64,000 bases of DNA from a virus: IMG/VR virus record IMGVR_UViG_3300045988_062793; one strand, 5' to 3'. The translations under genes were made by a program, and so were the position numbers. Each line of letters begins with the position of its first letter. Position 1 is the stretch's first letter. The notes beneath the pieces were generated by a model. The model was not told the DNA's origin. It did no database searches and saw only the letters and a list, made by a program, of their open reading frames with translations. Of the stretch, positions 16,339 to 62,408 are shown piece after piece.

Positions 16339-16635
16339 ATGATTACTGAGATTTCATACGATAAGGACTTATTAGGAAAGGAAGTTAGGGGTACAAATAC
16401 TTCCTACTGGGGTATATCAGCTTTACAGGCAGGCCACGATGACATCCGCCAAGATACTTCAAAATATTTATTTAGAGACTGTGTGGTAGATAGTGGACAT
16501 AAAGGGATAATTATAGGGTTCGAAGATAATAACCAATTCTTTGATTACTATTATATAGTCTATGTCCCAGAACTTGATAAAGTTGTTTATCAACTATGTA
16601 ATGATGCAAGATTTATTAATTCTATTGAGATATGA
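16339..16635 (+). CDS. Hypothetical protein (98 aa)
   Basis: ORF track. Confidence 0.4.
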   Translation: MITEISYDKDLLGKEVRGTNTSYWGISALQAGHDDIRQDTSKYLFRDCVVDSGHKGIIIGFEDNNQFFDYYYIVYVPELDKVVYQLCNDARFINSIEI

Positions 16636-17129
16636 AAAAGAGAGTTTTAATTATTTTAATGATTAGTATTGTATTCGGATTTGCAACTGGTTATTCCTTG
16701 CACCACTGGATACATTCTGCGAGGTTTCCAGAGGAGAAAATTATGCTGATGCCGGAACATCCATTCTATTTGATGGAGGAGGTGAATGAGGAAGTATTGT
16801 ATAATACTCTTAAACACTATGATTTCCCAAGTCCTGCTATCATAACAGCTCAGGCTATTCTAGAATCTGGTAACTTCAAGTCTAAACTTTGTAAGGACAA
16901 CAATAATTTGTTCGGACTGTATAATTCAAGAACGATGTCCTATTTCAAGTTTGATAGTTGGATAAGCTGTGTATTTGCTTATAAGCAATTTATTCTAAGT
17001 AGGTACGATCCAGAAGAGGACTATTATAGATTCCTAGATAGGATTGGATATGCCGAAGATTCTCTATATGAGAGTAAGGTTAAAGAATTAGAGTTAGATA
17101 TTATCAACAAGTATGGAAGCCCAGATTGA
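16632..17129 (+). CDS. Peptidoglycan hydrolase, glucosaminidase (GH73/FlgJ-like) domain with N-terminal TM or signal-anchor; candidate endolysin-like enzyme
   Basis: AIITAQAILESGNFKSKLCKDNNNLFGLYN matches the glucosaminidase (mannosyl-glycoprotein endo-beta-N-acetylglucosaminidase) signature; N-terminal hydrophobic helix LIILMISIVFGFATGY. Confidence 0.55.
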   Translation: MKKRVLIILMISIVFGFATGYSLHHWIHSARFPEEKIMLMPEHPFYLMEEVNEEVLYNTLKHYDFPSPAIITAQAILESGNFKSKLCKDNNNLFGLYNSRTMSYFKFDSWISCVFAYKQFILSRYDPEEDYYRFLDRIGYAEDSLYESKVKELELDIINKYGSPD

Positions 17130-21749: not shown

Positions 21750-21786
21750 GATAGATAAAATGTTTAACTAATTAAAATTATTGAAA

Positions 21787-21951
21787 ATGAAGAAGTTACT
21801 ATTGCTTTTTGTGTTAGTTGCTGCTATGTCAGCTTGCACACACAAGACTCAACCGGCAACTGTAGTTGCAGAAGACTCTGTTGTAGTCGTTGAGAATGTT
21901 GCAGACACAACTGCTGTCGATTCTATAGTATCTAACGATAGTATTCAGTAA
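21787..21951 (+). CDS. Small lipoprotein (54 aa)
   Basis: MKKLLLLFVLVAAMSACTHK... is a signal peptide with a lipobox Cys; below the ORF-track size cutoff. Confidence 0.4.
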   Translation: MKKLLLLFVLVAAMSACTHKTQPATVVAEDSVVVVENVADTTAVDSIVSNDSIQ

Positions 21952-23851: not shown

Positions 23852-24868
23852 ATGAAGAGAATTTTTAGTATTATTTGTTTGTGTTTGATGTGTGCATTTG
23901 CTAGCGCACAAGTTGTTGAGACTGGAAGTATGAAGGATAACTGGTATATTTCTGGTAATGTTGGAACTACTATTTGGGATAACCATAGAAGTTGGGCAGA
24001 ACCAAATGATGTACTAGTAAACATTGCTATTGGTAAGGAGATTACTCCTATCTTTGGCTTGGAGTTAGACATGATGGCTGGAATGAACCAAGGAAATAAA
24101 ACATTCTTTGATTCACATAATTTGACAGCTAACGTTACTACCAATCTTACTAACCTGATATGTGGATATAACGGAGATAGACGTCTGTTTGAGCCTATAT
24201 TAATCATTGGTGCTGGTTGGTATCATACTTATGGAGGTGTCTATAATAATGTATCCGCCCGTGGAGCCGTTAGATGTAACTTTAATATCTCTAATAGATG
24301 GGCATTAAATGTTACTCCTGAGTATATGTTACTTCCCAAGACTTCCCCTCTGAATCATGAGTTTAACATCTATATTGGTGCTACCTATCGCTTTAAGTCT
24401 AGCAAAGGGGACTTTCCAATTATGAAGTTGTATAGTGATGCCGAGGTTGAAAGCCTAAACGCTTCTATTAATGAGTTGAGAGCCAAGAATGAGGAACTTA
24501 TGGCTCGTAAACCAATAGAAATTGTTAAGACGGACACAATCGAAATTACTAAAGTAGAGCTTTTGACTCCAAAAATTCAATTCCTTCAAAATTCTTCAGA
24601 GATTTCTAAAACTTCCAATGTGGCTGTCTCAGAACTAGCTTCCTATATTTCTAATAGTGGAAAAGCTTATGTGATTGAGGGATATGCTTCGGAAGAGGGT
24701 CCAGAAGAGTTTAATAATAACCTCGCTGTAGCTAGAGCAGAATCTATGAAGAAAGCTCTGATTAGCTATGGTGCTCCAGAGGATAAGTTGGTTGTTAAGG
24801 GATGTGGAATTACCACTGAATTTGGAGATAATGAATTTAATCGTATCGTAATAATTTCTGAACAATGA
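23852..24868 (+). CDS. OmpA-family outer-membrane protein (signal peptide, beta-barrel-like N-terminal part, coiled-coil linker, C-terminal OmpA peptidoglycan-binding domain)
   Basis: Signal peptide MKRIFSIICLCLMCAFASAQ; alternating amphipathic strands; C-terminal ...AYVIEGYASEEGPEEFNNNLAVARAESMKKALISYG... resembles an OmpA_C domain. Confidence 0.65.
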   Translation: MKRIFSIICLCLMCAFASAQVVETGSMKDNWYISGNVGTTIWDNHRSWAEPNDVLVNIAIGKEITPIFGLELDMMAGMNQGNKTFFDSHNLTANVTTNLTNLICGYNGDRRLFEPILIIGAGWYHTYGGVYNNVSARGAVRCNFNISNRWALNVTPEYMLLPKTSPLNHEFNIYIGATYRFKSSKGDFPIMKLYSDAEVESLNASINELRAKNEELMARKPIEIVKTDTIEITKVELLTPKIQFLQNSSEISKTSNVAVSELASYISNSGKAYVIEGYASEEGPEEFNNNLAVARAESMKKALISYGAPEDKLVVKGCGITTEFGDNEFNRIVIISEQ

Positions 24869-25109
24869 AGTATAAGAAAAAAGTAGCTTGGTTAAAGGCA
24901 AAGCAAGCATGGTGGGATAAACAAGGAAAAGATTTTCAGGCTGCAACTACCAGACCTGGGTCTGTTAAAACTCGATAAATCATGGTTGCATTTATAATTG
25001 TGTGCATAATGTTTGCCGCGTATATTTATTATGACCCGTATGTAGACATTACAGAGGATAATGTACTACTATGGTATAATAAAAGTGGCAATAGAGAATA
25101 TATTATTCT

Positions 25110-25322
25110 ATGGTCGAGAAAAACTTAATTAAGGCATTTGTTGCCGTTCTGTTAATCGTTGTGATTTACAACGTCAGCTTATGGTTATTATCCGAATCAT
25201 TGTATGCTGCAAATATCTTGGGGTTGTTACTATTACTAGTGGCAATCCCAAGTTTAGTTTATAGGATATTCAAATACATTAAGAAACATTATTTAAATAA
25301 GGAAAATGAAGACAATTATTAA
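25110..25322 (+). CDS. Small membrane protein (70 aa, two TM helices)
   Basis: ORF track; hydrophobic. Confidence 0.4.
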   Translation: MVEKNLIKAFVAVLLIVVIYNVSLWLLSESLYAANILGLLLLLVAIPSLVYRIFKYIKKHYLNKENEDNY

Positions 25323-26133
25323 GCTTTTGTGTGTATTAACTTTGGTGTTTGGCTTGTCTAGTTGTGGCTACGAGAGAATTGATGCTGGTTACGAAGGCAT
25401 TAAGGTGAATCTATACGGAGACGGTAAGGGAGTAGACGATGTGTCTCTTGTTACTGGCGCGGTGTGGTATAATCCTGTTACTACGGCTGTATATGAATAT
25501 CCTACATTCGTACAGACTGTGGACTATCCTCCTTTCAGTATTAATGCTAAAGATGGATCATCATTTACTGTAGACCCTACAATTTCTTTGAAGATTGTTG
25601 ACGGGAAATCACCAGAAGTATTTAAGAAGTATAGAAAGGAAGATATTGTAGAGGTAATTAACACTACTTTGTATAATTACGTAAAGAATGCTTTTCGCAT
25701 TCAGCTGAATAACTATACTACTGATGAACTAGTAAGTAAACGTGAGGAGTTTGAGAAGTCTATAGAAGATAGACTGTCAAAGGAACTCTTGGCTGAGAAT
25801 TTTCAGCTTGAACAAATGACTTCTGGTCTTCAATATCCACAGACGCTAGTCAATTCTATTGATGCTAAGAATGCTGCAATTCAACAGGCTTTGAAGGCAG
25901 AGAATGAAGTTAAGACTATTGAGGCAGAAGCTAAAAAGAAAGTAGCAGCTGCACAAGGAGAGGCAGAAGCTCTTAAGATTAAGGGTGATGCAGAAGCTGA
26001 ATATAATAGAAAGATTTCAGCATCTTTATCAGTTCTCATAGTTCAGCAGGATATGATTAAGAAGTGGGATGGAAAACTTCCTACTTATGGTCAGGTTCCC
26101 ACCTTATTTAAAGACGTAGCTAATAACAAATGA
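25306..26133 (+). CDS. SPFH/band-7 (prohibitin/HflC-like) lipoprotein
   Basis: Lipoprotein signal MKTIIKLLCVLTLVFGLSSCGY; SPFH-like core followed by an A/E/K-rich helix (EAEAKKKVAAAQGEAEALKIKGDAEAEYNRKI). Confidence 0.55.
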   Translation: MKTIIKLLCVLTLVFGLSSCGYERIDAGYEGIKVNLYGDGKGVDDVSLVTGAVWYNPVTTAVYEYPTFVQTVDYPPFSINAKDGSSFTVDPTISLKIVDGKSPEVFKKYRKEDIVEVINTTLYNYVKNAFRIQLNNYTTDELVSKREEFEKSIEDRLSKELLAENFQLEQMTSGLQYPQTLVNSIDAKNAAIQQALKAENEVKTIEAEAKKKVAAAQGEAEALKIKGDAEAEYNRKISASLSVLIVQQDMIKKWDGKLPTYGQVPTLFKDVANNK

Positions 26134-26477
26134 TGTATCTAGTAATATGCACTGTGATGGTAATCATCACGGTGCTTATCTTGAAAGATACCCATGTAAC
26201 CGTTTATTACAATGGGTATAGCAGAAGTGTGGCACTTATAGAAGAAGACTATGACCTTAAAGTTCCAGTGTGGCTAGTTTTAGTAATACTAATCCTAGGA
26301 TTTATCCCAGTACTGAACATTATGCTATACACAGTAGGATATTTATTCTATATAGTTCATGCTGTGTGGAATCCAGACAAGTTGTCTGGATATACGCATA
26401 AGTTCAATCTAAGAGGAAATAATTTTCTAACTAGAATAGTGAAGAAGATATGGAAATTCTTAAATGTATGTGTATAA
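26130..26477 (+). CDS. Membrane protein (115 aa, 2-3 TM helices), hypothetical
   Basis: ORF track. Confidence 0.45.
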   Translation: MMYLVICTVMVIITVLILKDTHVTVYYNGYSRSVALIEEDYDLKVPVWLVLVILILGFIPVLNIMLYTVGYLFYIVHAVWNPDKLSGYTHKFNLRGNNFLTRIVKKIWKFLNVCV

Positions 26478-26974
26478 CACTGAAACATCTTAGGCGAATA
26501 CTTAGACATAAGTTTTGGGTAGCTTATTACTGTTTTCAGTTAGGTTTATACAAACAGGGCATCTTGCACGACTTATCTAAATTCGGATGGTATGAGTTCT
26601 CTCGTTCTGTAAAATTTTACGATGATAACACATCTCCCTTAAACAAGGAAAAAGAAATTCTAGGATATTCTAGGTCTTATTTACATCACAGAGGAAGAAA
26701 TCCACACCATTATGAATACTGGGTAACTAAGCTAGACATTGGCGGTGTTCCAGTGAAGATGCCTAAAGAGTATGCTCTAGAATTGGTATGCGATTATCTG
26801 GCTGCTGGTAAAGTATACAACGGTAATAGTTTTCAAGGAGAATATAACTGGTGGATTAAGTATATAAATTCTCCTAGGGCTATCCATCCAGAAACGAAGG
26901 AATTTATCACTCAGTGTTTTAAGAATTTAGCTAGTGGTAAAGGCATGAAAAGTTTATTAACAATTAGTTATTAA
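26450..26974 (+). CDS. Hypothetical His-rich protein (possible metal-dependent hydrolase), immediately upstream of NAMPT
   Basis: LHDLSKF and HHRGRNPHHYEYW motifs; function not established. Confidence 0.35.
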   Translation: MEILKCMCITLKHLRRILRHKFWVAYYCFQLGLYKQGILHDLSKFGWYEFSRSVKFYDDNTSPLNKEKEILGYSRSYLHHRGRNPHHYEYWVTKLDIGGVPVKMPKEYALELVCDYLAAGKVYNGNSFQGEYNWWIKYINSPRAIHPETKEFITQCFKNLASGKGMKSLLTISY

Positions 26975-26987
26975 AATAATTTTTAGA

Positions 26988-28538
26988 ATGGAAATAATTA
27001 ATGCAACAGATGGCTATAAATTGGGCCACCATAGAATGTATCCAGAAGGTACTGAACAAGTTTACAGTAATTGGACTCCTAGAAGTAACAAATACTTTCC
27101 AGAAGCCACTGAAGGTTCTGTAGTATTCGGAATCCAATATTTAATTAAGAAGTATCTGATTGATGAATTTAATCAGAATTTCTTTGGATTGCCCAAAGAG
27201 AAAGCTGTAGAAATGTTTTATCGAAGAGTTCATAACTTCGTGGGAATTGAGTCCGTAGGATATAAACATATTGAAGCCTTGTATGATTTAGGTTATCTTC
27301 CCATTCGCATTAAAGCGTTGCCAGAAGGTTCTGTATGTCCTATCAGAGTTCCCATGATGACTATTACTAATACAAAGTCAGAGTTCTTCTGGTTAACTAA
27401 TTATCTAGAGACTTTGATTAGTTGTACTCTGTGGATGCCTTGCACTTCTGCTACTAGAGCAAGACTCTATAAGAAGGAACTTAAAAGACACGCAGTACAT
27501 ACTGGATTTCCAGAAGATGTAAATCTGGATTTCTTGTGTCATGACTTCTCTATGAGAGGAATGGCTGGTTTAGAGGCTGCTATCATTTCTGGTATGGCAC
27601 ATATGACTTCGTTTGTTGGAAGTGAGACCATTCCAGCTATTGCTGCTCTAGAAGAATATTATGGTGCAAATTCTGACAATGAATTAATTGCTGCTACTGT
27701 TCCAGCTACAGAACATTCTGTAATGTGTGCTGGTGGAGAAGAGGACGAACTTCAAACCTTTAAGCGATTAATTAATGAATTGTATCCATCTGGGTTCGTT
27801 TCTATAGTTTCTGATACTTGGGACTTCTGGAATGTTATTGAAAACTTCCTTCCCAAATTAAAGAAGGATATTATGGCTCGTGATGGGCGTGTAGTTATTC
27901 GTCCAGATAGCGGAGACCCCGTTGATATTATTTGTGGACTGAGAACTAATCCTCACTTCCATACTAGGATGAAAGAGGGTAAGTATTATTGTTGCTATGC
28001 TCCATTTAACGATGATGCTGAGTATGTAGAAGTGTCAGAGGGTCAATATTACGGAGCATATTATATGCTTGGTAAGATATTCGGCTGGAATACTACTTCT
28101 AAGGATTATCGCTATCCTAGTACGAAAATAGGTTTGTTGTATGGTGATTCTATCACTCTTGAACGTCAGAAGCAAATCTATATGCGACTTGAGAACGCTC
28201 ATATGGCAGCTTGCAATCTTGTTCTAGGAGTAGGCTCATTTTCATATCAGTATGCAAGTAGAGATAGCTTAGGATTTGCAATTAAGGCTACTGCTTGTGT
28301 AATTAATGGAGAATTGAAAGAAATCTTCAAACATCCTAAAACTGATGATGGTACTAAGAACTCTTTGAAAGGTTTGATTGCTGTCTATAAAGGTCTGGAT
28401 GGGAAGTATACTGCTACCGACCAGGTCTCAATCGAGGAGGAAAAAGAGGGATGCTTAGAGACTGTCTTTGAAGATGGTATCTTGAAGAAAGAATATTCTC
28501 TTGAAGAAATCAGACAAAGAATTGACCATGGACTTTAA
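26988..28538 (+). CDS. nadV: Nicotinamide phosphoribosyltransferase (NAMPT/NadV-like; alternatively a NAMPT-like Namat of NAD reconstitution pathway 1)
   Basis: N-terminal INATDGYKLGHHRMYP matches the NAMPT ATDSYK(V/L)xH motif; length 516 aa. Confidence 0.75.
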   Translation: MEIINATDGYKLGHHRMYPEGTEQVYSNWTPRSNKYFPEATEGSVVFGIQYLIKKYLIDEFNQNFFGLPKEKAVEMFYRRVHNFVGIESVGYKHIEALYDLGYLPIRIKALPEGSVCPIRVPMMTITNTKSEFFWLTNYLETLISCTLWMPCTSATRARLYKKELKRHAVHTGFPEDVNLDFLCHDFSMRGMAGLEAAIISGMAHMTSFVGSETIPAIAALEEYYGANSDNELIAATVPATEHSVMCAGGEEDELQTFKRLINELYPSGFVSIVSDTWDFWNVIENFLPKLKKDIMARDGRVVIRPDSGDPVDIICGLRTNPHFHTRMKEGKYYCCYAPFNDDAEYVEVSEGQYYGAYYMLGKIFGWNTTSKDYRYPSTKIGLLYGDSITLERQKQIYMRLENAHMAACNLVLGVGSFSYQYASRDSLGFAIKATACVINGELKEIFKHPKTDDGTKNSLKGLIAVYKGLDGKYTATDQVSIEEEKEGCLETVFEDGILKKEYSLEEIRQRIDHGL

Positions 28539-28965
28539 TCATCCTTTTGGGAAAGAAGCTTGCAAGAAACGACTATTAGAAGAGTATCATAAATACAGAA
28601 AGCTAATAGTCGCTTTCGATTTTGATAATACTATTTTCGATTACCATAATACTGGCGGAGATTATAGTTGCGTTATAGAACTACTTAAAGAATGCTCACT
28701 TCTAGGTTTTGAAATGATTTTATTCACCACTGATGAAGATGATTATAAAATTATGGCAAAGCAGACAATTTGTATGCGATTAGGAATAGCAAATATTACT
28801 TCTAATACTTTATCTGCTCCAAACATTAGTAGTTCTATATTCTCTAAATCTAAGAAACCTTATTACAATATCCTCCTAGATGATAGGGCAGGTCTAGAAG
28901 AAAGTTATGAAATCTTAAAATATGTAGTAGATGAAATTAAACTTAATCAACAAGGAAATCAGTGA
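28501..28965 (+). CDS. HAD-superfamily phosphatase-like protein
   Basis: Motif I VAFDFDNTIFD (DxDxT). Confidence 0.45.
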   Translation: MKKSDKELTMDFNHPFGKEACKKRLLEEYHKYRKLIVAFDFDNTIFDYHNTGGDYSCVIELLKECSLLGFEMILFTTDEDDYKIMAKQTICMRLGIANITSNTLSAPNISSSIFSKSKKPYYNILLDDRAGLEESYEILKYVVDEIKLNQQGNQ

Positions 28966-29740
28966 AATTAAGTACGATGTTACTAGATTTCCTGATGGAG
29001 AGCCTCAGTTTTTCCTTACTGAGGAATTAAACAGAAAGGAATCTATTGATGTCATTTGTAGAATATCTAATACTGAGGATTTATTCCTCTTAATGCAAGT
29101 AGGAGATATTTTAGATAGACAAGAAGTAGAATGGGATTTACATATTACTTATTTAATGTCTATGCGTATGGATAGAGTAATGAGTTTTAATCGTCCATTC
29201 TCCTTGAAAGTAGTATGTAATATGTTAAATAGCTTAGGCTATAGAAACATATATGTTCTTGAGGCACATTCTAGTAGAACTTTTCATCTTCTTGGTGACA
29301 GATGTTTACCTTGGGAATTTGGACACTACTCTTGGATTCCAGCCCAAAGTAATATCGTGTTCCCAGACCATGGGGCGAAGGACAGATATGGAAGTAACTA
29401 TTCTCACTATGGTTATTTAGTCTTCAAAAAGGAAAGAAATCTAGAGACTGGAAGAATTGAGTCCTTTGAAATAGAGGAGTCTAAGAATTGCTACTATTCT
29501 ACATTTGTGTTCATTGATGACTTGTGTGATGCTGGAGGAACTTTCCTAGGAGAGCTTAAGGTTCTCAAAGAGAGATATCCAAATAGCAAGTTTATCATAA
29601 TCGTATGTCATGTAGTTAATGATAAAGGCCTGGTTAATATGTGTAATAATTTTGACCAGGTTATTGTATCTAATTCTCATAGGGATATTAATTATCGTCC
29701 CAGCAACGAGAACTTAACTGTAATAGACGTTTGTAAATAA
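28931..29740 (+). CDS. Ribose-phosphate pyrophosphokinase family protein (PRPP synthetase-like; alternatively ADPR-PP synthetase Adps)
   Basis: FPDHGAKDRYG (PDxGxxxRA-like) and PRPP-binding loop VFIDDLCDAGGT. Confidence 0.6.
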   Translation: MKLNLINKEISEIKYDVTRFPDGEPQFFLTEELNRKESIDVICRISNTEDLFLLMQVGDILDRQEVEWDLHITYLMSMRMDRVMSFNRPFSLKVVCNMLNSLGYRNIYVLEAHSSRTFHLLGDRCLPWEFGHYSWIPAQSNIVFPDHGAKDRYGSNYSHYGYLVFKKERNLETGRIESFEIEESKNCYYSTFVFIDDLCDAGGTFLGELKVLKERYPNSKFIIIVCHVVNDKGLVNMCNNFDQVIVSNSHRDINYRPSNENLTVIDVCK

Positions 29741-30699: not shown

Positions 30700-31270
30700 G
30701 TATTTGATTGACTCGTTTGTAGACTTTAAGGGTGAGGAACACAAGATTGTAGCGTGTGCTTTAAGCCAATCTCCAGAAGAGAGTGAGGATGGTTGCAAAC
30801 TTGCGGTAGGTTGGGTAAACGAAATGGACGAATTTGTCTGTGTGGACGATCCAGATTACGCAGAGGTTTGCAGAGTCGTATCTGTTGGTATCAGTGTATG
30901 TCACCCGACTGATACGTTTGACAAGGAGAGAGGTAAAGCCAATGCCTACAATAAAGCTTTGCACGACCCTAAATGTCCTACTATCTATACTAGAGATAGA
31001 GGAGTAGCTAGTAAGACCTTGGTAAAGGCTTTCTTGAAGCAGGAGGTTAATTTCCTTAAAGAGAATCCAGAGAGAATTATCAAGGGTTACAATCAGATGA
31101 AAGCTCGTTTTGACAAAAAGCAAGCTCTAAAAGCTAAAGTGGAAGGTCTCTCTGACAATGAGAAACTTGTTGTGAAACTGGCAATGAAGGAAGGTGTAGA
31201 TGTAGTCGGATGCGTTAAGCTCGTAGAGGAGGCTAAGGCTGCAGGTATTGAGATAAATGAACAAGACTAA
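30680..31270 (+). CDS. Hypothetical protein (196 aa)
   Basis: ORF track. Confidence 0.45.
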   Translation: MKQDVAEYLIDSFVDFKGEEHKIVACALSQSPEESEDGCKLAVGWVNEMDEFVCVDDPDYAEVCRVVSVGISVCHPTDTFDKERGKANAYNKALHDPKCPTIYTRDRGVASKTLVKAFLKQEVNFLKENPERIIKGYNQMKARFDKKQALKAKVEGLSDNEKLVVKLAMKEGVDVVGCVKLVEEAKAAGIEINEQD

Positions 31271-31562
31271 GTTTTGCTATATTTTAATTGTCATAATGGG
31301 ATTAATAATTATATATTTGTCTGTCCCTAAGAGAGATAGTAATCCTAGCACTCCTAATGTGCAAGAGATTGTGAGGGATTCTATCATTAGAGATAGCATT
31401 TATATAGTTAATGATTCCATTGTTGAGAAAATTAAATATATAGACAAGGAGTATGATGAGAAAGTGTCTACTATTATGTCTAGTTCTGATAGCATCAATT
31501 TGTGCTTTTTCTCAGAATACATCGACCGTTACAATAACCAGCGAACAGTTAAAGACAACTAA
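31257..31562 (+). CDS. Hypothetical membrane-anchored protein (101 aa)
   Basis: ORF track; N-terminal TM helix. Confidence 0.4.
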   Translation: MNKTKFCYILIVIMGLIIIYLSVPKRDSNPSTPNVQEIVRDSIIRDSIYIVNDSIVEKIKYIDKEYDEKVSTIMSSSDSINLCFFSEYIDRYNNQRTVKDN

Positions 31563-31827
31563 TTTGATATTTGCTGAACATCAGAAGTTGTCCGAAACTG
31601 TTCCTTTATTGAAGAGCCAAATAACTAATTTAGAACTTATAAACAAAAGTTGGGAGAAAACGGATTCTGTTCGCAGAGTCCAGTTACTGTATTATGGAAA
31701 CATAATTGAAGATAAAAATAGATCAATTGAAGGTCTTAATAAGTCTTTAAAGAAGAAGCAGAACGTAATCAAATATGGAGCTGCTGGCTCATGTGTATTA
31801 ATATTATTATGCCTATTACTGAAGTAA
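31453..31827 (+). CDS. Secreted or membrane protein with signal peptide and C-terminal TM helix (124 aa)
   Basis: MMRKCLLLCLVLIASICAFSQ is signal-peptide-like. Confidence 0.4.
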   Translation: MMRKCLLLCLVLIASICAFSQNTSTVTITSEQLKTTNLIFAEHQKLSETVPLLKSQITNLELINKSWEKTDSVRRVQLLYYGNIIEDKNRSIEGLNKSLKKKQNVIKYGAAGSCVLILLCLLLK

Positions 31828-32349: not shown

Positions 32350-33213
32350 ATGACTGTATTAGGGGATAAGCTGAGAGAGGCTTTGAATGATAAAGCAAAC
32401 GATGTTAATAGCTATGTATGGAAAGGACCTAAAGTAAATGGAGTCCAGGAGGAAATAAAGTTAGTGGATGCTGATTATGACCAGCTGAAACGCTTCTATA
32501 ACCACTGTGAACAAATGTTGTACAACTCGGATACCAAGAATCCGGGTCGTTTAACATTACTAGATATAGTGTCCGATCAAATACAGAGATGTCGAGCAGA
32601 GCTTCTTATTAGATGGCTTAGAGCTGAGAAACAATACACAAACACTCGCTGTTTGGAAGACCTGAGAATTACCATCAAGAATAATAAAGAGATTTTGACC
32701 AATGAGGCTATTAAAGTTTATCCTATTGGAAATATTCTTAATGGTATCCCTGTAGAGTTTAGAGAAGTACCTGTAAGTTTAGTTATGGACGCTTGTCTGG
32801 ATTCTTTGGGATTGTTTGATAACTCTCATTTGACGTTGAATTTCATTGTCAAGATGGGACTTTGGTTTACACAGCAAGAAATGCAAAAGGACTTGTATCG
32901 TAAAGACCCTGTAACAGGTAAAGCTGTCAATAGACTTTTGGTGGTAAGTAAGGAACTTCGTTTGAATCCTTCTATTGCTCTTAAAATCTGTGATACTGGA
33001 TTAAGTTATGCTGAGTTTAGATCGATGTGTAGACTGAAACGAGATAAATATGCAAACTTAACTAGTGATCAGTTGAGACTGTTGTCGAGCAAGGTTCTTT
33101 ATCGCTTCCAGAATCAATGTGAAAGTCAAGCCAAACAGTGGAAGGACAAAATGGAAGAAATTAAGAAAGTTGCCGAACTTAAAGGTTGGGACATCACTAG
33201 AAATATAGACTAA
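32350..33213 (+). CDS. Hypothetical protein (287 aa)
   Basis: ORF track; ATG preceded by attagatta ... aaattagatg motifs. Confidence 0.5.
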   Translation: MTVLGDKLREALNDKANDVNSYVWKGPKVNGVQEEIKLVDADYDQLKRFYNHCEQMLYNSDTKNPGRLTLLDIVSDQIQRCRAELLIRWLRAEKQYTNTRCLEDLRITIKNNKEILTNEAIKVYPIGNILNGIPVEFREVPVSLVMDACLDSLGLFDNSHLTLNFIVKMGLWFTQQEMQKDLYRKDPVTGKAVNRLLVVSKELRLNPSIALKICDTGLSYAEFRSMCRLKRDKYANLTSDQLRLLSSKVLYRFQNQCESQAKQWKDKMEEIKKVAELKGWDITRNID

Positions 33214-34490
33214 TGAAGGACCTTTTTACTCCTGTCACTCGTGATGAGCGGCAGGAGGAGTCCGTCAAAAAGTGGATTAAGTCCAAAGGAAGAGGTACAA
33301 TAGTTGCTTGTACTGGGTATGGAAAGACTAGGGTTGCTACTATTATTATAGGAAAACTTATTTCTAAGTATCCTTCTATCAAGGTATTAGTAGTCGTTCC
33401 AAATTCTACTTTGCAAGAACAATGGTCTGGAATCCTAGACAGTTTGGGATATGGATTGAATGTCGAAGTTGGAATTATTAATTCCATGGCAAAGAACGGG
33501 TATGATTGTGACCTTCTAATTCTGGATGAAATTCACAGATGTCCTGCTGATACTTTCTCTTCTGTATTTACTAAGGTAAAATATAAACTTATTCTTGGCT
33601 TAACTGCTACTATAGAGAGACTCGATGGAAAGCACAGTATCATAGAAAAATACTGTCCAGAGATTGATAATATTTCTATAGAAGTAGCCAAAGCCAATGG
33701 TTGGGTATCAAACTTTTCAGAATATCAAGTTATAATAACGGTGGACGACATAGACTTGTATAGAAAATATAACAAGGAGTTTGTTCAACATTTTGAATAT
33801 TTTAACTTTGATTTTGACTTAGTTATGAGTATGTTAGGTCAAAACGGATTTGTCAATAGGGCTAAGTATAGGGACGAACTATGTAACCGAAACAGCAAGC
33901 TGGATAGGAAAGAAGTCTTCAAAGAAATTACTTTTCATGCTACGGCATTTATGAGAGCTTTGCAGAGTAGGAAAAAGTTCATATACAATCATGCTAAGAA
34001 GCTAGAAATAGCCAAGGAGATAATCAAGTATAGGTCCGATAAGAAAATCATTACCTTTTCAGCTAATGTGAAAATGGCTGAAAGCATAGGTATAGGATAC
34101 GTTTATACTGGAAGAGAGAGTAAAAAGAAAAACAGAATAACTATAGAGGAATTTTCCACACTTAGCTCTGGAGTGCTTAATAGCGTCCAGCTAGCTAATG
34201 AGGGTTTGGACTGTAAGGGTTTATCTGTTGGTATTGTTCTTGGTCTAGATTCCAGTCCTATAAAGAGTAAGCAGAGAACTGGTAGGGTAATACGTAAGGA
34301 AGAACCTACTAAGTATGCTGAAATGTTCACAATTGTTATTGAAAACACTGTAGAGTGTGAATGGTACAAGAAGTCACATGAAGGAGTGAATTATATAACT
34401 ATTGATGAAGAGAATCTTATGAAAGTTCTAAGGGGAGAACCCTATGAGCCTTATAAGAAAAAAATACAAAATTTTACTTATCGTTTTTAA
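33213..34490 (+). CDS. Superfamily 2 DEAH-box helicase (UvsW or type III res-like)
   Basis: Walker A CTGYGKTRVA, motif II LLILDEIHRC, motif VI-like KQRTGRVIR. Confidence 0.7.
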   Translation: MKDLFTPVTRDERQEESVKKWIKSKGRGTIVACTGYGKTRVATIIIGKLISKYPSIKVLVVVPNSTLQEQWSGILDSLGYGLNVEVGIINSMAKNGYDCDLLILDEIHRCPADTFSSVFTKVKYKLILGLTATIERLDGKHSIIEKYCPEIDNISIEVAKANGWVSNFSEYQVIITVDDIDLYRKYNKEFVQHFEYFNFDFDLVMSMLGQNGFVNRAKYRDELCNRNSKLDRKEVFKEITFHATAFMRALQSRKKFIYNHAKKLEIAKEIIKYRSDKKIITFSANVKMAESIGIGYVYTGRESKKKNRITIEEFSTLSSGVLNSVQLANEGLDCKGLSVGIVLGLDSSPIKSKQRTGRVIRKEEPTKYAEMFTIVIENTVECEWYKKSHEGVNYITIDEENLMKVLRGEPYEPYKKKIQNFTYRF

Positions 34491-34747: not shown

Positions 34748-35353
34748 GTGAGAAATCTTGAATTGAAACAACAGCTTCTGTTTTGTGAGAAATATAGTAT
34801 AAATCCGAGCGAGTTGTTGTTGTTAGAAATTATTCTTATTGCCCAAGAAGGCGACGAACCAGAAATTGTCCATGAGTATTTCTCCTCTAGAGTATGTGCT
34901 CGTGGTTTTACAATAGAACTATTAACTGGGCTTCGCAATGCTGGAATTATTCATAAATCCTATAAAATTCCTGAAAAAGGAAGTGTATTTAATCCCTTAG
35001 ATATTCCACTAAACAAAAATGTGGTTAAAGATTTCTACAAATGCTCATTTGAGCTAGGTAAGGAATTATGGGATACCTATCCTCAATTCGGGATAGTTAA
35101 TAATTCACAAGTGGGTCTTAGAAGCGTGTCTAAGAAATTTGATACCATCGAAGACTTCTATAGGTTTTATGGTAGGACCATCAGATGGAAGCCAGAAATT
35201 CATAATCAAATTATAGAGCTAGTAAAGTGGGCTAGAGAGCATAATATTCTATGTACCACTATCGCTAACTTTGTAATAGACCATAAGTGGGAAGAACTTG
35301 AAGCACTAAAAGATGAAGGCGGAGTTAATTATGATTCCATGAGATTACTATGA
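34748..35353 (+). CDS. Hypothetical protein (201 aa), replication module
   Basis: ORF track. Confidence 0.45.
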   Translation: MRNLELKQQLLFCEKYSINPSELLLLEIILIAQEGDEPEIVHEYFSSRVCARGFTIELLTGLRNAGIIHKSYKIPEKGSVFNPLDIPLNKNVVKDFYKCSFELGKELWDTYPQFGIVNNSQVGLRSVSKKFDTIEDFYRFYGRTIRWKPEIHNQIIELVKWAREHNILCTTIANFVIDHKWEELEALKDEGGVNYDSMRLL

Positions 35354-36444
35354 TTTCTGAGAAACTTCTTTATGAAATTGATAGAGGTAGATTGGGGTTA
35401 AATCATGGTATATCTATGAAGCTTCCTAAACTAGAGAGTATTATTGATGGAGTTACTAGGGAAACCTACACACTGATTCTATCTAACTCTGGTGCAGGTA
35501 AAACTTCATTTGCCCTTTATGCTTATGTTTATAGACCACTAATGGAACATCTTGATGATGATGATTTTAAGGTATTATATTTTAGTCTAGAGATGGGAGA
35601 AGTAGCCTTATATATTAAGCTATTATCCATATACATCTTCGAAACGTATGGAATACAATTATCTTTTAAGAAGATTCTTTCAAGAGAAAAGGAATATATT
35701 TTGTCAGAGGAACATTATGACCTAGTTAAGCAATGTATGCCCTGGGTAGATAAGATTAGTAAAAAGCTGGAAATCTATGACAAGAAAGTATCTCCAAAAA
35801 AGGTGTATGCTATCTTGAAAACTAGGTTAGAAGAAATGGGAACTTTTTCTGAAAGTGAGACGAGACTCCTATATAAGCCTAATAATCCTAATCTTATCTA
35901 TAATATCGTAGTAGACCATATTGGTCTAGTTGGTACTAAACCTGACATAGACTTACTTTCTAGCTATCTTCTCTTCTTTAGAGATAAGTGTGGTGTTAGT
36001 CCTGTAGTAATACAGCAAGCTAATAGAGAGCAAGGAAATATTGAAAGGTTTAAGCAGGGAAAGAGTGCGTTTACTATTCATGATGCTAAAGACTCTGGTA
36101 ATACTGTGCAGGATTGTAATATCATGATTGCATTGTATAATCCGCACAGGGATGGATTGAAAACTTATAAACATTATAATATTGAGTATCTAAATTCTTA
36201 TTTTAGAAGTATAATGGTACTTAAGAACCGATATGGTGATTGTGATGTTGAGGTTGGAGTAAACTTCTTTGGTTGGATTAATATGTTCCACGAGCTTCCA
36301 AAGCCCGATGAAATTTATGATTATGAAAGGTATACAAACCCAAATTATATACTAGAAGATAATAGTTCTATAGTAGAACAGGAGCTAGATGATATTACAG
36401 AATTAGATGATTCAAATGAAAACTTTAATTTTGCATTAGAATAA
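35350..36444 (+). CDS. DnaB-like replicative helicase (RecA-fold ATPase domain)
   Basis: Walker A LILSNSGAGKTSFAL, Walker B-like VVDHIGLV; size and context (adjacent to primase and SF2 helicase). Confidence 0.55.
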   Translation: MISEKLLYEIDRGRLGLNHGISMKLPKLESIIDGVTRETYTLILSNSGAGKTSFALYAYVYRPLMEHLDDDDFKVLYFSLEMGEVALYIKLLSIYIFETYGIQLSFKKILSREKEYILSEEHYDLVKQCMPWVDKISKKLEIYDKKVSPKKVYAILKTRLEEMGTFSESETRLLYKPNNPNLIYNIVVDHIGLVGTKPDIDLLSSYLLFFRDKCGVSPVVIQQANREQGNIERFKQGKSAFTIHDAKDSGNTVQDCNIMIALYNPHRDGLKTYKHYNIEYLNSYFRSIMVLKNRYGDCDVEVGVNFFGWINMFHELPKPDEIYDYERYTNPNYILEDNSSIVEQELDDITELDDSNENFNFALE

Positions 36445-62126: not shown

Positions 62127-62408
62127 ATGAAAAAATTATTTGGTTTATTGTTAATAGCAATTATTGCTTTAAGTTCTTGTGCAGACAGCAAGACTTTTGA
62201 GAGAGCTGATGGAACTAAGTTTGTAGCTGAACCTTATGGTTGGGCTAACTACCAATCTAATAAGATTGAAGGAGTAACATATGAAGCATGTTTTGAGAAC
62301 ATTGTTTGGGATATTGTTGCTATAGAAACCGTAATTGTTCCAGTATGGTTAACTGGCTGGGAACTGTACGAACCAGTTTCTTATACTGAACCAAGTGTTA
62401 CTAAGTAA
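62127..62408 (+). CDS. Small lipoprotein (93 aa)
   Basis: MKKLFGLLLIAIIALSSCADS is a lipoprotein signal with a lipobox. Confidence 0.5.
   Translation: MKKLFGLLLIAIIALSSCADSKTFERADGTKFVAEPYGWANYQSNKIEGVTYEACFENIVWDIVAIETVIVPVWLTGWELYEPVSYTEPSVTK

Follow-up and report, generated by a model that had tools for sequence, protein, structure and literature searches.

We analysed a 64,000-nucleotide (nt) stretch of viral DNA (IMG/VR record IMGVR_UViG_3300045988_062793; hereafter the window), and found that it carries two envelope-directed modules which vary independently of each other, namely, a gene for an OmpA-family outer-membrane protein of 338 amino acids (aa), and a cassette in which the gene for a 275-aa SPFH (Band_7) lipoprotein lies between those of two small transmembrane (TM) proteins, s70 and t115 (Table 1). 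The window belongs to a clade of crAss-like phages of 185-192 kb, probably, judging from the genome size and the affinity of its DNA polymerase PolA, the Zeta group. A preliminary description of this region, made from the letters alone, had pointed to a secreted OmpA-like protein with a peptidoglycan-binding C-domain, to a lipid-anchored band-7/SPFH protein and to small TM proteins around them, and had read the whole as one cargo serving perhaps for exclusion, envelope modulation or adhesion. This interpretation is partly supported: the genes and their domains were recovered as described, whereas the single cargo was not. Both proteins belong to known families; what we add is the independence of the two modules, the minimised surface loops of the OmpA homologue, a widespread 2-TM partner of the SPFH protein, and a likely inner-membrane topology for the latter. 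Opinion could go either way on the reading that we put forward, namely, that the two modules place proteins in the envelope of the infected Bacteroidales cell to keep it intact and under phage control.

The OmpA gene and the SPFH cassette are separate modules

For the comparison of populations we used 47 IMG/VR loci and one ENA contig that carry the OmpA gene in the same context. The 338-codon frame is intact in 46 of these 48 loci; it is cut by the contig end in one of the other two and has an internal deletion in the second (L052). Around 18 loci keep OmpA and the neighbouring small gene s48 and lack the s70-SPFH-t115 block at this position. In these cassette-less loci homology ends at window position 25133, where the next gene is a divergent allele, and since their DUF5662 gene is replaced by an allele of 57-66% identity, the mosaic break includes that gene as well. 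L052 presents the reverse case: codons 3-297 of OmpA are cleanly deleted (window 23859-24740) and the cassette is kept. Single genes are also affected, as L008 lacks the body of the SPFH gene alone (window 25351-26040) and L016 lacks the 115-aa gene, its t115 and DUF5662 genes being replaced, while s48 is present in all related loci, including those without the cassette. Hence, OmpA and the SPFH cassette are separate modules that vary independently across the 48 related loci, which is at odds with the joint cargo suggested earlier.

The five genes from 23852 to 26477 are close-set on the plus strand. The last four overlap by 4-19 nt and continue into the DUF5662 gene, and therefore look like one translationally coupled unit; the end of s70 overlaps the start of the SPFH gene by 17 nt, and the start of t115 overlaps the SPFH stop codon (ATGA). 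Relative to homologues at about 87% identity, the ratio of non-synonymous to synonymous substitution rates (dN/dS) is 0.035-0.06 for OmpA and about 0.04 for the SPFH gene, synonymous sites being saturated, 0.12-0.16 for s48 and about 0.2 for t115. As purifying selection also acts on s48, s70 and t115 in related phages, where their lengths are conserved, all five genes are real and selected.

These results bear on whether the two proteins are host genes recently captured without a phage function, or host sequence misassembled into a phage contig. Although both families are of host type and frameshift-truncated OmpA variants (clusters P0005 and P0008) occur in metagenomes, we consider this extremely unlikely, because the genes stand in the same context in 47 viral contigs, the base composition of the OmpA/SPFH region matches that of the remainder of the window, no cellular homologue found exceeds 30% identity with the phage OmpA, purifying selection is strong, and the SPFH protein is a member of a phage-wide family.

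A compact OmpA with trimmed surface loops

The 338-aa protein scores above the Pfam cut-offs for both OMP_b-brl (E-value 5.2e-10; 40.2 bits, cut-off 28.7; residues 8-181) and OmpA (E-value 7.7e-11; 42.7 bits, cut-off 27.2; residues 244-324), in agreement with the domains predicted in the preliminary description. An AlphaFold2 model built on an alignment of 56 sequences has a mean predicted local distance difference test (pLDDT) score of 82, with most of the barrel blocks above 85, and shows a signal helix, eight strands (31-180), a helix (196-218), a disordered segment (224-235) and a beta-alpha-beta-alpha-beta domain (237-337). The top Foldseek match of the whole protein is full-length E. coli OmpA (model 9a2m), the barrel matches E. 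coli OmpA (1qjp), Ail and NspA, and the C-domain fits the OmpA-like domain of A. baumannii (3td5) with a root-mean-square deviation of 1.6 A and a TM-score of 0.75, these E. coli and A. baumannii structures being the best matches of chain, barrel and C-domain. The profile matches of the C-domain in the PDB are 9uu2 (E-value 1.5e-25), 5u1h and 3td3. Overall identity with E. coli OmpA is about 16%, and the phage protein has a coiled-coil linker in place of the Pro-rich hinge of the latter. Its last barrel strand ends in ATYRF, a typical aromatic signal for the beta-barrel assembly machinery (BAM); that of E. coli OmpA ends in YRF too. We judged the signal peptide from hydrophobicity and conservation alone: Ala19 and Gln20, on either side of the predicted cleavage site, are nearly invariant in the 56 homologues. 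In Bacteroidota, Gln at position +1 after signal-peptide cleavage is known as the Q-rule, and the phage protein fits it. Within the C-domain, Arg295 of the Asp/Arg pair that binds diaminopimelate is invariant, as is Asn288. However, the Asp of this pair in the E. coli and A. baumannii proteins is Ser280 in the phage protein, followed by Glu-Glu; Ser occupies this position in 10 of the 56 homologues, including the chromosomal P0011.

The full-length cellular relatives are OmpA-family proteins of Bacteroidales of 400-450 aa (median 424 aa) with 21-30% identity to the phage protein, and a chromosomal location was confirmed for two of them. They share with it the signal peptide with Gln at +1, the 8-stranded barrel, a linker of about 56 residues with a coiled coil, the OmpA_C domain and the invariant Arg295 and Asn288, but the phage gene lies in a phage replication module and its product has all four surface loops shortened. 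In the alignment, the outward-facing connections are 10, 9, 4 and 6 aa long against cellular medians of 22, 18, 12 and 15 aa, whereas the linker, the C-domain and the three turns on the periplasmic side are as long as in the cellular proteins. The outward orientation of the four connections follows from the periplasmic position of the mature N-terminus and of the C-domain. With loops of 4-10 residues and periplasmic elements at cellular length, the protein would be a surface-silent tether that exposes almost nothing. Four coiled-coil residues (L202, N207, L209 and R210) are nearly invariant across phage and cellular homologues, and since the register is thus conserved, phage OmpA may co-assemble with host OmpA. 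The abundant clade of 185-192 kb conserves such an OmpA without surface loops, and Lak megaphages have one too (349 aa); another compact gene (337 aa) is found in a third phage type carrying Thy1, a sigma factor and RF-1.

The trimmed loops could also be understood as a means of superinfection exclusion or receptor masking, in which the loop-less OmpA would dilute or replace a host OmpA receptor on infected cells and debris, and/or the SPFH scaffold would block DNA entry at the inner membrane. We regard this as unlikely, though serious enough to be kept in view. The trimming affects all four loops, and the conserved coiled-coil register would permit mixed oligomers. In B. thetaiotaomicron, phase-variable loci for an S-layer lipoprotein and an OmpA beta-barrel rise in phage survivors, and one such S-layer lipoprotein confers phage resistance (bioRxiv 10.1101/521070). 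Furthermore, the SPFH pair of phage N4 adjoins a gene annotated as a superinfection exclusion protein, and the presence/absence polymorphism described above is typical of conflict genes. On the other hand, the N4 annotation amounts to adjacency alone, no receptor is known for these phages, the proteins have no homology to characterised exclusion proteins, and our literature search turned up no paper tying phage SPFH proteins to exclusion. Likewise, a PADLOC scan of nine proteins gave no meaningful match, the only one being JetC with an E-value of 0.004 on a coiled coil.

Two metagenomic clusters of frameshift-truncated OmpA sequences without the C-domain (P0005 and P0008) have 90 and 51 members, and the full-length clusters have 1132, 433 and 153. 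We considered phase variation for these frameshifted variants and dropped it, since the gene has no homopolymer of at least 6 bases.

The SPFH lipoprotein belongs to a phage-wide family

The 275-aa protein matches Pfam Band_7 over aa 24-209 (E-value 3.4e-22; 79.8 bits, cut-off 23.6), and its residues 1-265 align with positions 81-349 of the 379 in the profile of PHROG 200, annotated as lipoprotein (E-value 5.6e-60). The lipid anchor noted in the preliminary description is borne out by the lipobox L-S-S-C20, whose Ser19 and Cys20 are invariant in 27 homologues despite differing signal peptides. The closest sequence match in the PDB is prohibitin-2 (8rrh; E-value 1.4e-6), which covers the SPFH domain and the coiled coil (residues 25-231). 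The structure model, for which the alignment was shallow (27 sequences sharing at least 82% identity), reached a pLDDT of only 53 and was not used for a fold search; at this low confidence it places a long helix at residues 179-253. The protein shares the SPFH domain and a predicted coiled coil with HflK/HflC and the mitochondrial prohibitins, has the size of a prohibitin, and would, like HflK/C, hold its SPFH domain on the outer side of the cytoplasmic membrane, but it has a lipid anchor instead of a TM helix, is encoded by a single gene rather than a heterodimer pair, and showed no sign of a link to FtsH. It scores far below the cut-off of the hflC model TIGR01932 (E-value 0.004; 16.1 bits against 134.4 bits), and in an NCBIfam scan neither it nor the OmpA homologue matched any model at equivalog level.

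By tblastn we found relatives of the SPFH protein in 565 of 50,697 phage records, including crAss-like phages (58-68% identity), Lak phages (47%), and Stx/phiP27, N4-like, rV5-like, Bruynoghevirus, phiCbK-like, SPO1-like and Kayvirus phages; metagenomic relatives number in the thousands. Members of PHROG 200, among them cr126_1 gp042, IAS virus gp018, phiP27 L05, MbpS of Kayvirus and the proteins of N4 and rV5-like phages, share with the window copy full-length homology, an N-terminal lipobox or TM anchor, the SPFH domain, an Ala/Glu-rich helix and a small membrane-protein gene directly upstream. The cross-group alignment reveals a common signature ending in KW[DN]GxLP (KWDGKLP in the window, with W254, G256 and P259). 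The lipid-attachment Cys is nearly invariant in phages of Gram-negative hosts, while a Bacillus phage has an N-in TM helix instead. The window copy has in addition a downstream partner of the t115 type, which is specific to Bacteroidales phages. The earlier impression of an unusually rich set of host-envelope-type proteins is correct in that the window is rich in envelope-directed genes (see below), but the SPFH protein represents a phage family and not a host-type passenger.

The SPFH gene either evolves unusually slowly or has been exchanged. Between the window and L062, a crAss-like phage of about 100 kb, the SPFH proteins are 82% identical, whereas identity is 30% for the 2-TM partner, 35% for the 115-aa protein, 23% for the SNF2 helicase and 24% for DnaB; the window regions compared were 25110-26477, 33213-34490 and 35350-36444. 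Such a pattern could arise if the gene is very strongly constrained or if it alone was exchanged; we favour constraint, since the synonymous sites are saturated. The contrast between an 82%-identical SPFH protein and neighbours at 23-35% suggests that its target is conserved.

An 83%-identical SPFH lipoprotein (P0075) also occurs in a different phage background (L053-L055; longest carrying contig 352 kb) with genes for Macro, R2K, RNA ligase, NADAR and methylase proteins. There, a 67-aa 2-TM ORF lies upstream, parted from the SPFH gene by an inserted 139-aa soluble ORF, and two TM proteins downstream end in a t115-like tail, K[FY]LNK.

A 2-TM partner precedes the SPFH gene in diverse phages

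According to the positive-inside rule, s70 has an N-in/C-in topology. The order s70-SPFH-t115 is the same in cr126_1, IAS virus, L062 and L053, and crAss-like phages, Pylas, N4, rV5-like phages, Cyrano, phiP27 and Pokken all encode, right before the SPFH gene and usually overlapping its start, a 2-TM protein of 60-70 aa whose tail is basic. In the Klebsiella phage Pylas the partner carries the annotation "2 TMDs N in C in", and in phiP27 (L004, 3816-4004) and Pokken (L058, 3308-3508) it is an unannotated ORF. Among the 47 distinct IMG/VR loci with an SPFH gene, 37 have a partner ORF detected by a hidden Markov model (HMM) with E-values from 1e-5 to 1e-27, and the seven apparent misses are artefacts of ORF picking, the partner having been seen directly in L062 and inferred for the rest. 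An HMM of the partners from Bacteroidales phages ranked Pylas gp28 first of 886 ORFs (E-value 0.001) and the phiP27 ORF second (E-value 0.008), and gave an E-value of 0.05 for the Pokken ORF; its other weak matches were mostly SPFH neighbours, with chance matches among them. The reverse HMM ranked s70 of the window first of 837 ORFs, but with an E-value of 0.36. Therefore, the homology of the 2-TM partners across phyla, which is weak in one direction, is suggested by the reciprocal top ranks, the position and the topology taken together, and not by the E-values alone. Of the 47 IMG/VR loci, 18, mainly from crAss-like phages, have a t115-type gene after that of the SPFH protein, and homologues downstream of SPFH were found in cr126_1, IAS virus, L062 (35% identity, E-value 5e-16) and L053.

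Translational coupling of an SPFH gene to a small multi-TM partner is also seen in SPFH-NfeD operons such as QmcA-YbbJ and YqiK-YqiJ. However, the partner gene comes first in the phage cassette, the partner has no NfeD domain or OB-fold (neither s70 nor t115 matched NfeD in Pfam at E-values up to 0.1 or in NCBIfam), and the SPFH domain would face the periplasm rather than the cytoplasm.

Small proteins of this kind also raise the matter of lysis timing, whereby s70 and t115 would be holin- or antiholin-like and the SPFH scaffold would organise or restrain them until lysis. The architecture of s70 (2 TM, basic C-tail) and of t115 (TM helices and a cytoplasmic tail of charge +6) is holin-like, a resemblance only; in cr126_1 the gene next after the cassette is that of a peptidoglycan hydrolase, and in Kayvirus the gene of the SPFH protein MbpS has lysK/holA on one side and tgl on the other and adjoins that of the holin-like MbpV (PMC7150955). 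In the window, however, the only wall hydrolase gene, that of a candidate signal-anchored endolysin (16632-17129), lies 8 kb upstream of the cassette; moreover, the pair stands among early or replication genes in N4-like, rV5-like and crAss-like phages, and the cassette is absent from many viable relatives. A lysis cassette would be expected to lie among late genes beside an endolysin and to include an i-spanin paired with a spanin-type lipoprotein some 50-70 aa long, while what we found is a 275-aa SPFH protein in a replication module. Accordingly, a role in lysis timing appears distinctly unlikely.

Localisation and possible roles of the two modules

Topology arguments make it most likely that the SPFH domain lies on the periplasmic face of the inner membrane, in an HflK/C-like topology. 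As an alpha-helical protein, s70 can only reside in the inner membrane, with its conserved loop on the outer side. Asp at position +2 after the lipid-attached Cys of a lipoprotein is a Lol-avoidance signal for retention in the inner membrane, and such an Asp is present in three of six enterobacterial homologues, those of Pylas, Cyrano and phiP27. In addition, SPFH homologues occur in Gram-positive phages, where a single membrane is available, which supports placement at the cytoplasmic membrane. With the SPFH protein at this face and not at the outer membrane or cell surface, adhesion, one of the roles proposed in the preliminary description, is unlikely for it.

Regarding localisation, oligomerisation and purpose, we infer the following. 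After Sec export, the host BAM would insert the 8-stranded barrel of the OmpA homologue into the outer membrane, and the coiled coil and OmpA_C domain would reach the cell wall, so as to tether the outer membrane to it. Above its 2-TM partner, the prohibitin-sized SPFH lipoprotein would assemble into an oligomeric scaffold and thereby mark off a patch of inner membrane. The purpose of both modules would be to keep the envelope of the infected cell intact and phage-controlled during the presumably long infection cycle of these large phages. We thus favour maintenance or remodelling of the envelope over exclusion and lysis timing as the function, as far as can be inferred from the comparisons above.

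Several points weigh against this reading. The rules of lipoprotein sorting in Bacteroidota are not settled; and an HflK/C-like protein of a Pasteurella prophage is found in outer-membrane vesicles (PMC9872710), which, if it is homologous to this SPFH family, would favour the outer membrane. Since the model of the SPFH protein is poor, cage formation is argued only by analogy with its family. Binding of the phage OmpA to peptidoglycan is predicted and likely, but not assured, because the canonical Asp is replaced by Ser280. That many natural relatives manage without the cassette speaks against a core function in maintenance. Finally, the shortening of the OmpA loops could be simple streamlining of the genome.

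The same Pasteurella protein, PM0222, also contributes to virulence (PMC9872710), and thereby suggests another possibility, namely, that the two proteins are conversion factors that benefit the carrier cell, as do lambda Lom/Bor or PM0222. SPFH lipoproteins also adjoin int/xis in Stx and phiP27 prophages. Nevertheless, we consider conversion very unlikely here, as the window ORFs that we scanned included no lysogeny genes, crAss-like phages are reported to be incapable of lysogeny (PMC8375218), and the genes lie within a densely packed operon of the replication module.

A broader and more speculative reading, which we think improbable rather than far-fetched, covers both modules. In it, the 2-TM partner and SPFH protein would form a pan-phage, HflK/C-like cage at the inner membrane, common to crAss-like, N4-like, rV5-like and Stx/phiP27 phages and to Gram-positive myophages, which from the outer face of the cytoplasmic membrane would regulate some conserved target in the host, such as DNA entry, membrane integrity or quality control of the FtsH type. 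Separately, the loop-less OmpA of Zeta crAss-like, Lak and other large gut Bacteroidales phages would co-assemble with host OmpA through the coiled coil and re-surface the infected cell, hiding receptors and keeping the outer membrane tied to the wall. Since the SPFH and 2-TM pair is present in the E. coli phage N4 and in rV5-like phages, it is open to genetic study now. If either module does control superinfection, lysis timing or vesicle release, this would bear on the long-term coexistence of crAss-like phages with their hosts. Our literature searches found no functional study of phage SPFH proteins (as lipoprotein, holin, exclusion or crAss-like protein) or of OmpA in huge or jumbo phages, and in papers on the Zeta and Epsilon groups of crAss-like phages the main text makes no mention of OmpA, SPFH or flotillin.

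The phage background and other genes of the window

Near-identical related contigs in public data span 185-192 kb, and the size range of the Zeta group of crAss-like phages matches this (PMC7886860). The nearest relatives of PolA are those of Steigviridae crAss-like phages (52% identity), and the gene order around the SPFH gene is the same as in cr126_1 and IAS virus. Every ORF of appreciable size in the window is on one strand, and the identifiable genes make up a replication and nucleotide-metabolism module (RNase H, SNF2 and DnaB helicases, NrdD, ligase, PolA, NAMPT and RPPK). The 16 tRNA genes, all on the plus strand between 702 and 20216 among small ORFs, include two each of tRNA-Met, Cys, Ser, Gly and Leu. 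A scan of 21-29 kb for sigma-70 promoters and terminators gave nothing interpretable: promoter-like sites were fewer than in shuffled sequences, and the candidate terminators lie within coding sequence.

Table 1. Features of the window discussed in the text. Coordinates are window positions; aa, amino acids; TM, transmembrane.
Feature	Position	Strand	Size or residues	Basis and remarks
OmpA-family outer-membrane protein	23852-24868	+	338 aa	Pfam OMP_b-brl and OmpA, AlphaFold2 model, Foldseek
Sec signal peptide (predicted)	23852-23908	+	aa 1-19	Hydrophobic N-terminus; predicted cleavage between ASA and Q
8-stranded beta-barrel	23942-24391	+	aa 31-180	DSSP strands of the model
Coiled-coil helix	24437-24505	+	aa 196-218	Model; joins barrel to C-domain
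OmpA_C peptidoglycan-binding-type domain	24560-24862	+	aa 237-337	Pfam and PDB matches
s48, single-TM protein	24982-25128	+	48 aa	TM at residues 1-19
s70, 2-TM partner of the SPFH lipoprotein	25110-25322	+	70 aa	Basic C-tail
SPFH/Band_7 lipoprotein	25306-26133	+	275 aa	Pfam Band_7, PHROG 200
Lipobox Cys of the SPFH lipoprotein	25363-25365		Cys20
t115, membrane protein	26130-26477	+	115 aa	2-3 TM, basic C-terminal tail
DUF5662 protein	26450-26974			E-value 5e-29; HDLSK and HH motifs
Nicotinamide phosphoribosyltransferase (NAMPT)	26988-28538			PHROG 448, E-value 3e-183
Ribose-phosphate pyrophosphokinase-like protein (RPPK)	28931-29740			PHROG 619, E-value 1e-51
2-TM protein	1122-1640		172 aa	Precedes flotillin-like gene; no NfeD match
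Flotillin-like SPFH protein	1659-3632		657 aa	N-terminal TM helix; Band_7 E-value 1.3e-19
Glucosaminidase	16632-17129		165 aa	Pfam E-value 1.2e-15; N-terminal TM/signal-anchor segment

About 13 ORFs of the window appear to be envelope-directed, with signal peptides, lipoboxes or TM helices. They include the other SPFH protein to which the preliminary description had referred, a flotillin-like protein that matches the FloT model over its first 280 or so residues (E-value 1e-38). Small predicted lipoproteins are encoded at 21781-21951 (56 aa, with the sequence AAMSAC) and 62127-62408 (93 aa, with IALSSC), and further secreted or TM proteins at 127-606, 31257-31562 and 31453-31827. The NAMPT and RPPK-like genes downstream of the cassette form an NAD+ salvage pair that is syntenic with crAss-like cr126_1, and the NAMPT DNA is about 72% identical to that of the B. 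thetaiotaomicron phages DAC15 and DAC17.

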